A DNA stretch of 63,102 nucleotides, counting the filler, from Bipalium vagum (Eukaryota): NCBI GenBank assembly GCA_037834085.1. It is 3 parts of 3 records of this genome, joined end to end, with 100 filler letters (N's around TTAATTAATTAA, not from the genome) between each part and the next. Parts side by side here need not be neighbours in the genome. Positions count along the whole stretch, not along the records: positions 44,197 to 63,102 come from JBBMKC010015724.1; 2 more parts are not named here. One strand, given 5' to 3'. The notes under the pieces were generated by a model. That model was not told the DNA's origin and made no database searches. It worked only from the letters and a program-made list of their open reading frames with translations. Of this stretch, positions 48,316-49,503 are shown in pieces. Positions within the stretch are counted from its first letter, which is position 1. Each line of letters starts with the position of its first letter. The translations under genes and the position numbers were made by a program.

Positions 48316-48639
48316 TCCAGCTTATGCCACTACGGATGGAGATAATTCCACATTCAGTTCGGAATCTTCACTACCATCATTCGAAGAAGTTTTTGGTGTA
48401 GATGAAGATTCAGTCATGTCAACATCCGCAGCTAGTTATCATGAATTATATCCACGACAGCAGAATTCTCGTCCAGTTATGCAAGTAGCCCCTATGCCCG
48501 CAACAGTTGATACATCTTCGCAAGCCAGTACTATGAGGCATTTCTTAAACGAAATAGCCAAAGTAGGACAGTGCTTTGCCTTAGGCATGACCAAAGAAGA
48601 AACTTTTGATCAACTTGCACAAACATTACCCGTACTATT

Positions 48640-49355
48640 CACAGTACCGGACCAACATGGGGATACGCCTCTCCATAGTGCTATCTTACGAGGTAATGCT
48701 CATCGAGCAGTAGAAATCATTGAAATAATTAAAGATTCATACAGATGGGTTTTAGAAAGGGAAAATAAATTTTGACATACTCCTCTTTTAATGACATCCG
48801 CATGTCAAGCACCCGTTAGTCTAATTAACCTCTTAATACCTCTTTTCATTTTTATAAAAAGATATTTAAAAAATAAAATAGTCAGTTACTTATGAAACAC
48901 CCTGTACAATACCGTTGTCATATTGATAGATAGGACAAAGCAGGTAAATCTATAGTAGATCATGCTATTGATGACCAAAACGAAGAAATAATGCATTATC
49001 TTATGACACAAATTCGACATCAACATTTACCCCAAATGTTTCAATGTTATGGTTACAATTACCAAACCTCTTTACATTATGCAGTAGTCACAAATTTTAC
49101 AGAAGATGTCAAATTAATCACTGAACTAGTTGGTATCGATTTAGAATATATGGCAGATGTGAACACAGCTGAGATTCTTAGAGATGAAACTCCCTTACAT
49201 CTTGCAGTCCGATTTAATACCTATACGGAAATTCTTAAAATATTACTCAGAAGATCTGATATTAATATTTATATAACAAATGAAGATGATAAAACGGCAT
49301 TACAGTTAGCCCAAGATAAACAAGCAGTTGATATGGTCGATTTACTCTTAGAAGC
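48640..49355 (+). pseudogene. Ankyrin-repeat array, IkB/Cactus-like
   Basis: DQHGDTPLHSAI, NKF*HTPL, DKAGKSIVDHA, YNYQTSLHYAV, ADVNTAEILRDETPLHLAV, NEDDKTALQLA...MVDLLL. Confidence 0.85.
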
Positions 49356-49503
49356 AGAATTTGCTGTTGGCAATAATATTGCACAACTGCTACATATCAC
49401 TTCTAATCTAGAAGCATTAATGGATTCAGACGAGGAATCTCCAAATAATCCAGATCAGGCACCAAGCGTCAGTTGCCTGCGAAGTCTACAATTCCGAAAA
49501 GAA

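Follow-up and report, generated by a model that had tools for sequence, protein, structure and literature searches.

A stretch of 63,102 nucleotides of Bipalium vagum DNA (the window; filler included) contains an array of ankyrin repeats between two proteases of a Ty3/gypsy element, and the locus raises the question of where such an array came from and what it would do for its carrier. The first-pass annotation had read it as an IkB/Cactus-like module without the canonical degron, encoded inside pol and acting as an NF-kB inhibitor. NF-kB/IkB ancestry and the status of the array as retroelement cargo are both supported by the present analysis, but the donor looks like a p100/p105-type precursor rather than Cactus. 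On balance we lean towards the reading that the window holds a dead copy of a Burro-like gypsy element, and that the family carries as cargo an ankyrin domain captured from an NF-kB precursor, which in intact members would be released by proteases to bind and damp host Rel proteins.

Relatives of the element were obtained from an integrase scan of metagenomes, which gave 6 loci (L numbers, L001 being the closest relative of the window); proteins are cited by P numbers. About 10 kb of the element is visible in the window, with both ends cut: the 5' end is cut by a gap (44097-44196), the 3' end runs into Polinton-like DNA, and no second or 3' LTR was found within the window. The order is gag, ubiquitin-like ORF, protease 1, arm, ankyrins, protease 2, RNase H, integrase, signal-to-transmembrane cargo and exonuclease-like ORF, as follows.

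44197-44360, + strand: probable 5' LTR remnant cut by the assembly gap, then a primer-binding-site-like stretch (44343-44360); the TTAACA-T(n)-TGGTG junction just before gag also occurs in L001, and the assignment to an LTR is presumptive.
44339-45764, + strand: gag with zinc knuckles, spread over three frames (Retrotrans_gag E 0.0015; zf-CCHC E 5e-7) and matching the gag start of L001.
45761-46786, + strand: ORF with ubiquitin/SUMO-like segment(s) (PF11976 E 0.03-0.04, below cut-off), with a weak match to the N-terminus of L004.
47961-48320, + strand: protease 1, broken by a stop and a frameshift, with DAG at the active-site position (aspartyl-protease Pfam E 0.008-0.02; 30% identity to protease 2 over 81 aa).
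48320-48532, + strand: arm, containing a short motif (48470-48496) common to L002, L003 and P0229.
48533-48838, + strand: pre-repeat helical segment followed by ankyrin repeats 1 and 2, the latter broken; nowhere else is the module as similar to planarian Rel-ankyrin proteins.
48840-48900 (approximate limits), no strand: AT-rich interruption with a change of frame.
48934-49400, + strand: ankyrin repeats 3-6 (Pfam), with the family members P0226, P0223, P0218 and P0217 as best matches among 372 stored proteins.
49405-49470, + strand: acidic tail.
49504-49830, + strand: protease 2, the pol protease, with DTG (Asp_protease E 2.7e-6).
49873-50330, + strand: start of the post-protease segment, junction of the missing reverse transcriptase (~49915) and RNase H (Pfam; alignment to L004).
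50518-51580, + strand: integrase (zinc finger, core and C-terminal part), frameshifted (Integrase_H2C2 E 7e-21, rve E 7e-11).
51650-52580, + strand: broken membrane-protein cargo, from a signal-peptide-like (51692) to a transmembrane-like segment (52425) by hydropathy; L001-L005 and P0111 have the same post-integrase layout, with no sequence match to them.
52722-53795, + strand: DEDDh-exonuclease-like accessory ORF, apparently truncated, with no Pfam match itself and 27% identity to ORF2 of L001 (E 1e-30), more weakly similar to ORFs of L003 and L004 that match RNase_T.

The Ty3/gypsy order of gag followed by PR-RT-RH-IN is kept in the window apart from the absent reverse transcriptase, and is complete in L002-L004 and P0111. 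Alignment to L004 placed the loss near 49915, where approximately 405 codons are missing in frame. Because this deletion removed the reverse transcriptase, the repeats are linked in frame to RNase H, and repeats 3-6, protease 2 and RNase H form a single open frame (stop to stop 48934-50517, first ATG at 48991). The direct fusion proposed earlier is therefore genuine as regards protease 2, whereas the adjacency to RNase H is a product of the deletion, and an intact ankyrin-protease-RNase H fusion protein was rejected on that ground.

The six or so ankyrin repeats of the first-pass annotation, together with the IkB-style motifs it quoted, are present: six motifs begin at 48659, 48773, 48943, 49060, 49183 and 49288 in the window translation, and Pfam Ank_2 was matched within ORF 48934-50517 (E 2e-12). 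The module is split over more than one ORF by a stop inside repeat 2 (48773-48775); the AT-rich stretch (78% AT) shifts the frame within it, and a further stop lies ahead of repeat 3. This copy cannot encode the whole ankyrin module and is a dead fossil. Folding of its repeats 3-6 as a single sequence gave a pLDDT of 36. The one sequencing run matched (X1; no RNA run was listed) gave 4215 contig pieces matching the window, most of them less than 95% alike. Its record 4 is a diverged copy bridging protease 1, arm and repeat 1, with 70 differing letters over 48268-48697, and its record 5 one bridging repeats 4-6, the tail and the start of protease 2, with 54 differing letters. The stop in repeat 2 was not shared by six contigs of this run, and the AT-rich stretch was missing in at least one; X1 may itself be the source of the window, and the diverged copies there are not independent support.

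A nested second element as the source of the two proteases was rejected, since P0111, L004 and P0371 hold two to three proteases in one frame. Two to three aspartyl-protease domains per polyprotein were seen throughout L002-L004, P0111, P0371 and the window (47961-49830), the extra ones standing beside cargo cassettes, and L002 and L003 additionally carry a degenerate EVG protease copy. An in-frame signal-to-transmembrane cargo and a separate DEDDh exonuclease ORF likewise recur after the integrase (window 51650-53795, L001-L005), with a weak Fn3 match in the cargo of L002. Other DNA in the window comprises a decayed Polinton-like region at 54200-62000 (family-B polymerase, E 3e-6; double-jelly-roll piece, E 0.001), which contains a duplication with a spacing of ~1.85 kb and at which the 3' part of the retroelement ends. 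Exons of a RhoGAP-START gene, which we take to be DLC1/STARD13-like, lie at 35847-40890; this gene and the Polinton remnants indicate no more than a genome that is AT-rich and of animal type. Another gypsy-like fragment, unrelated to the first element, and a number of Tc1/mariner-like remnants, with translations judged by eye, lie at 23388-24951, 3530-3893, 10176-10853 and 42930-43663.

The integrase tree placed five of the 6 loci with the window, P0111 and P0112 in a clade of 8 among 28 rows (support 98/99). P0112, a close pol relative with an integrase 60% identical, is labelled as a bacterial MAG and is probably eukaryotic contamination. In two of the 6 loci, L002 and L003, unbroken frames of 2220 and 2368 aa encode a homologous module of six repeats, which is located after the integrase, behind an extra protease and N-terminal to a signal-like segment. 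The slot seen in the window recurs in P0371, a cluster mate of P0297, with the order protease-protease-ankyrin-hydrophobic segments-protease. In L004 and P0111 several proteases occur but ankyrins are lacking, and L005 has none after the integrase; the record of L001 begins too late to show presence or absence. L002-L005 have a common record prefix, and P0223 and P0229 look near-identical to L003 and L002, respectively; hence these are not independent. L004 also displays, in a frame of 3426 aa (2-10279), a Monjiviricetes-type fusion glycoprotein (E 5e-94) ahead of three proteases and pol.

Pairwise comparison of L002 and L003, in which dS is near saturation, gave dN 0.29 and dS 1.53 for repeats 1-6 and dN 0.17 and dS 1.36 for repeats 1-3, with repeats 4-6 as the least conserved part (dN 0.42). 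Judged by these substitution rates, the module is evidently under purifying selection in the relatives. The diverged copies in X1, the unbroken frames of L002 and L003 and the layout of P0371 mark it as a family cargo rather than an accident. The ankyrin family surfaced only through the metagenome scan and a full profile search. Word-based protein searches with the module returned generic ankyrins only (91 long and 19 near-length matches), the precomputed domains of 90 pol relatives included no ankyrin, three scans of viral contigs found nothing and neither did phages, matches in NCBIfam were confined to generic ankyrins and were weak, lying far under the cut-off, and the Atlas gave generic ankyrin clusters among the rows listed.

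The donor was approached with a four-row profile, which was compared with 1.84 billion proteins; the best 150 matches consisted of 140 long multi-stretch arrays and 10 single-stretch matches. Three single-stretch matches (P0223, P0233 and P0264) carry retroelement domains, a fourth is P0297, the cluster mate of P0371, and another four (P0226, P0229, P0232 and P0246) lack any Pfam domain by which they could be assigned. The two that look cellular, P0309 and P0334, are the nearest cellular relatives of the module among these 150. P0334 bears the only informative name among the 10, being UniRef T1E117 'BCL3-1' of the planarian Dendrocoelum lacteum. Its residues 27-119 weakly match RHD_DNA_bind (E 0.0028; 18.1 bits, where the cut-off is 27), a KRKR cluster lies at 258 and ankyrins come after 321; a PDB search with P0334, which gave 51 matches with E no higher than 1, brought up no Rel chain. 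P0309, a partial sequence, is 39% identical to P0334 over 280 aa, including the basic cluster and the segment before it. The comparison by best matches, which had been proposed as a check on the IkB reading, thus led to one protein with a weak Rel match and its relative.

The same relationship was seen from the window itself. Its piece at 48533-48838 was 36% identical to P0334 over 101 aa (73.9 bits) compared with 42.4 bits for the best generic ankyrin, and this first piece scored 59-81 bits with 12 family proteins, compared with a maximum of 42 with generic ankyrins, retaining 18 of the 24 invariant family columns. In a tree with 8 generic ankyrins as the only outgroup and no true NF-kB outgroup, and with 4 partial or duplicate family rows left out, the window piece grouped with 11 family proteins against the generic ankyrins (100/99) as the deepest branch. 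Grouping with non-IkB ankyrins, together with a lack of Rel binding, had been named as the outcome that would speak against the IkB reading; the window piece stood apart from the 8 generic sequences. Repeats 4-6 of L002 scored 26 bits with an ankyrin array outside the IkB group and 10.9 bits with Bcl-3.

This difference along the module was consistent. Element modules were 33-47% identical to P0334 in the pre-repeat helix and 36-51% in repeats 1-3, and approximately 20% beyond repeat 3 (18-33% on short stretches). For repeats 1-2 of the window the best non-designed PDB match was NF-kB p100 (E 2e-6), while repeats 3-6 alone yielded no IkB among the top 60 of 252 PDB matches, nor in the 19 and 91 protein matches or the Atlas rows listed. 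In IkB-alpha, repeats 4-6 and the PEST tail provide much of the Rel contact. Pfam found no Rel homology domain in the window ORFs or in the element polyproteins.

The spacing of the repeats was 38, -, 39, 41 and 35 in the window and 38, 34, 39, 40 and 35 in the relatives; counted from alignments, it was 37, 33 and 37 in Bcl-3 and 39, 33 and 40 in p100, the long-short-long pattern being common to these and the module. Bcl-3 aligned in register with L003 over 41-257, as did p100 with L002 over 39-243. Against the family profile, Bcl-3 gave one stretch (41-252 versus 3-202) and 53.5 bits for the whole chain, compared with 45.2 bits for the best single stretch among 110 generic ankyrin proteins. 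The six repeats of the module fall within the range of 6-10 given for the NF-kB/IkB ankyrin family (PMC3639191; cited here, like the other papers, from an excerpt).

A structure model of L003 (pLDDT 90), built on a 21-row alignment in which 17 rows are generic ankyrins, was compared with 48,161 chains. IkB-beta ranked first (Z 22.5, rmsd 2.2, 212 aligned), IkB-alpha third and Bcl-3 sixth; p100, whose alignment takes in the pre-repeat helices, came tenth. These Z-scores are nevertheless tied with those of generic ankyrins, a DARPin lying within 1 Z and Notch and ankyrin-B at 1 Z. Foldseek on the PDB placed Bcl-3 only 19th. We regard an origin from the Rel-ankyrin protein family as highly probable. 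The likely donor, judged by sequence, is the C-terminal ankyrin region of an NF-kB precursor of p100/p105 type and not Cactus or IkB-alpha, and capture presumably ran from host to element.

The features that had suggested a classical inhibitor fared less well. DSVMST at 48407 and MDSDEES at ~49420 are present in the window, and the reported absence of a DSGxxS degron was confirmed in the three + frames of 47900-49700. DSGxxS was, however, also missing in each of the 12 family proteins scanned, the two that look cellular among them (P0309 being partial), and occurred in just 2 of 110 generic ankyrin matches. Since the cellular relatives also do without it, the missing degron is uninformative and not a loss, and the idea of a lost degron was rejected; if the donor was a precursor tail, no IkB-alpha-type degron would ever have stood upstream. 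The S/T-rich N-terminal arm was rejected as an IkB-like family feature, as it is not conserved (S/T 0.26 in the window, 0.14 in L002 and 0.12 in L003). A C-terminal PEST tail is a feature of classical IkB proteins such as IkB-alpha and Cactus. The tail of the module is acidic in all three copies measured (D/E 0.27 in the window, 0.33 in L002 and 0.23 in L003), but its S/T content is low in the relatives (0.06 in L002, 0.03 in L003) and it is S/T/P-rich only in the window, so that the tail of these two relatives is not PEST-like. The arm also contains a motif, [RK]PV[MI]x[VI]AP, at 48470-48496 of the window, aa 1389 of L002, aa 1526 of L003 and aa 45 of P0229 (3 of 12 family proteins), which we take to resemble, imperfectly, a SIAH degron (PxAxVxP) or a calcineurin PxIxIT site. 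Nor does the label of super-repressor follow, as Bcl-3-type IkBs are not purely repressors and modulate in both directions (PMC3639191).

In the reading that we prefer, the element family would have acquired its ankyrin domain from the C-terminal, inhibitory half of an NF-kB precursor of flatworm type, and intact members would translate it inside the polyprotein. Element proteases and signal peptidase might then free it as a cytosolic protein, the module of the relatives being N-terminal to an internal signal-like segment. Once free, it may act in trans by binding the Rel domains of the host, in the manner of polydnavirus Ank proteins (PMC3359993), and could thereby damp host NF-kB signalling. 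Such a module would escape IkB-alpha-type regulated destruction, given a donor segment that never had that degron. The immune role of the target is not established, because the best planarian NF-kB candidate, one of a set of highly divergent RHD factors, had no effect on transgene suppression (excerpt of PMC13563047). An excerpt of PMC11432056 reports no p50/p105 in Platyhelminthes, which is at odds with PMC13563047 and PMC6211748 as excerpted and is probably a matter of divergence.

Another possibility is that the module kept its origin and took a new job, no longer binding Rel and serving, through the pre-repeat helix and repeats 1-3, as a scaffold for some other host or element partner. Conservation is indeed concentrated in these parts while repeats 4-6 diverge, and no immune role is shown for planarian Rel factors in the excerpt of PMC13563047. 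We nevertheless consider a new job unlikely, though worth keeping in mind: cellular Rel-ankyrin proteins conserve the same repeats 1-3 at the identities to P0334 given above, and the three repeats of planarian secretory cell nidovirus (PSCNV) are proposed to derive from planarian RHD-ANK proteins (PMC6211748, excerpt), both of which point to a kept partner.

Rather more improbable is a Bcl-3-like role, in which the module would modulate Rel in the nucleus or shift precursor processing, and might thereby activate or favour survival rather than repress. Within the IkB family, Bcl-3 gives the best sequence match, proteins of its type work both ways (PMC3639191), apoptosis regulators are abundant in Burro cargo (PMC6431247) and knockdown of the most Relish-like planarian gene is lethal (PMC13563047), all according to the excerpts cited. 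On the other hand, no transactivation-like region was identified, and a basic cluster within 150 aa before the repeats occurs in just 1 of 8 element-type modules. That planarian Rel-ankyrin genes instead took their ankyrin tail from these retroelements is very improbable: P0309 and P0334 fall among element sequences whose cluster is unresolved and to which the window piece is external, but a Rel domain followed by ankyrins is the typical NF-kB precursor layout (PMC6211748, excerpt) and the register of the module matches p100. A chance passenger, with a piece of host DNA or a nested insertion caught in a single dead copy, is the least probable account and largely refuted, since the many breaks in the window copy and the lack of ankyrins in the closest pol relatives P0111 and L004 are outweighed by the diverged copies in X1 and by intact frames and purifying selection in the relatives.

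The preferred reading, a protease-released Rel antagonist of precursor origin, has parallels in several known systems. Ankyrins in Burro and viral IkB mimics are known, while the literature searched showed neither an NF-kB-precursor origin in retroelements nor the varied slots around pol, nor the parallel with PSCNV; it gave no link between retrotransposon ankyrins and NF-kB/IkB, and the primary Burro papers may describe the ankyrins further. Burro/GYPSM1 planarian polyproteins are already reported to contain ankyrin repeats (PMC6431247, excerpt), and the resemblance extends to a gypsy gag-pol polyprotein with cargo that includes a PF11976 ubiquitin-like domain and, in the relative L004, to a fusion glycoprotein in frame before pol. 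The elements are likened by description and not by sequence, and they differ in that no env, BIR, MATH or BCL2 was found in the broken window copy, and in that the extra proteases and the DEDDh exonuclease ORF are unmentioned in section 7 of PMC6431247, whose excerpt likewise draws no link between Burro ankyrins and NF-kB. The carriage of cargo in the present family is unusual for the extra protease domains placed beside cassettes in different slots around pol.

Among cellular proteins, p100/p105 and Bcl-3 (PDB 4ot9, 1k1a) and P0334 share with the module the register, the long first and third intervals and the helices before repeat 1, whereas the module has no Rel domain or conserved basic cluster, diverged repeats 4-6 and flanking retroviral proteases. 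Polydnavirus vankyrins resemble it as IkB-like ankyrin domains that are encoded by a mobile element and devoid of degradation signals (PMC3359993, PMC3757122; excerpts), although no vankyrin was among the 50 viral structural matches listed for the L003 model. They are stand-alone genes of DNA viruses with measured Rel binding (PMC3359993, excerpt), in contrast to a gypsy polyprotein for which Rel binding is predicted. NF-kB antagonism as a strategy has been demonstrated in large DNA viruses, and in a single RNA virus it is no more than a proposal; should the module bind Rel, a host-derived NF-kB antagonist would be encoded by an endogenous retroelement.

That RNA virus, PSCNV, is a further parallel. 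Saberi et al. found the nearest host homologs of its ankyrin in S. mediterranea and D. lacteum; two of these proteins carry a Rel domain at the N-terminus, and the viral domain was proposed to be an IkB mimic (PMC6211748, excerpt; T1E117 was not found in its 7 text supplements). The ankyrins of PSCNV are, like those of the element, borne on a polyprotein with planarian RHD-ANK proteins as nearest host homologs, and the PSCNV polyprotein was the top viral structural match of the L003 model (E 8e-10, the next being 1e-7; rmsd 17.7). It differs as an RNA virus with three repeats from a heritable retroelement with six. The donor, the Burro-like layout and the match to PSCNV make a flatworm the likely host of the element. 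Tentatively, and with the balance somewhat against so broad a claim, flatworm retroelements and a flatworm RNA virus may both have captured the inhibitory tail of the host NF-kB precursor, the retroelements shuffling a protease-flanked cassette that silences host Rel, and divergent planarian Rel proteins may be defence factors against mobile elements. If true, the defence role of these highly divergent proteins becomes testable, and capture by two unrelated parasites would flag host genes that matter.
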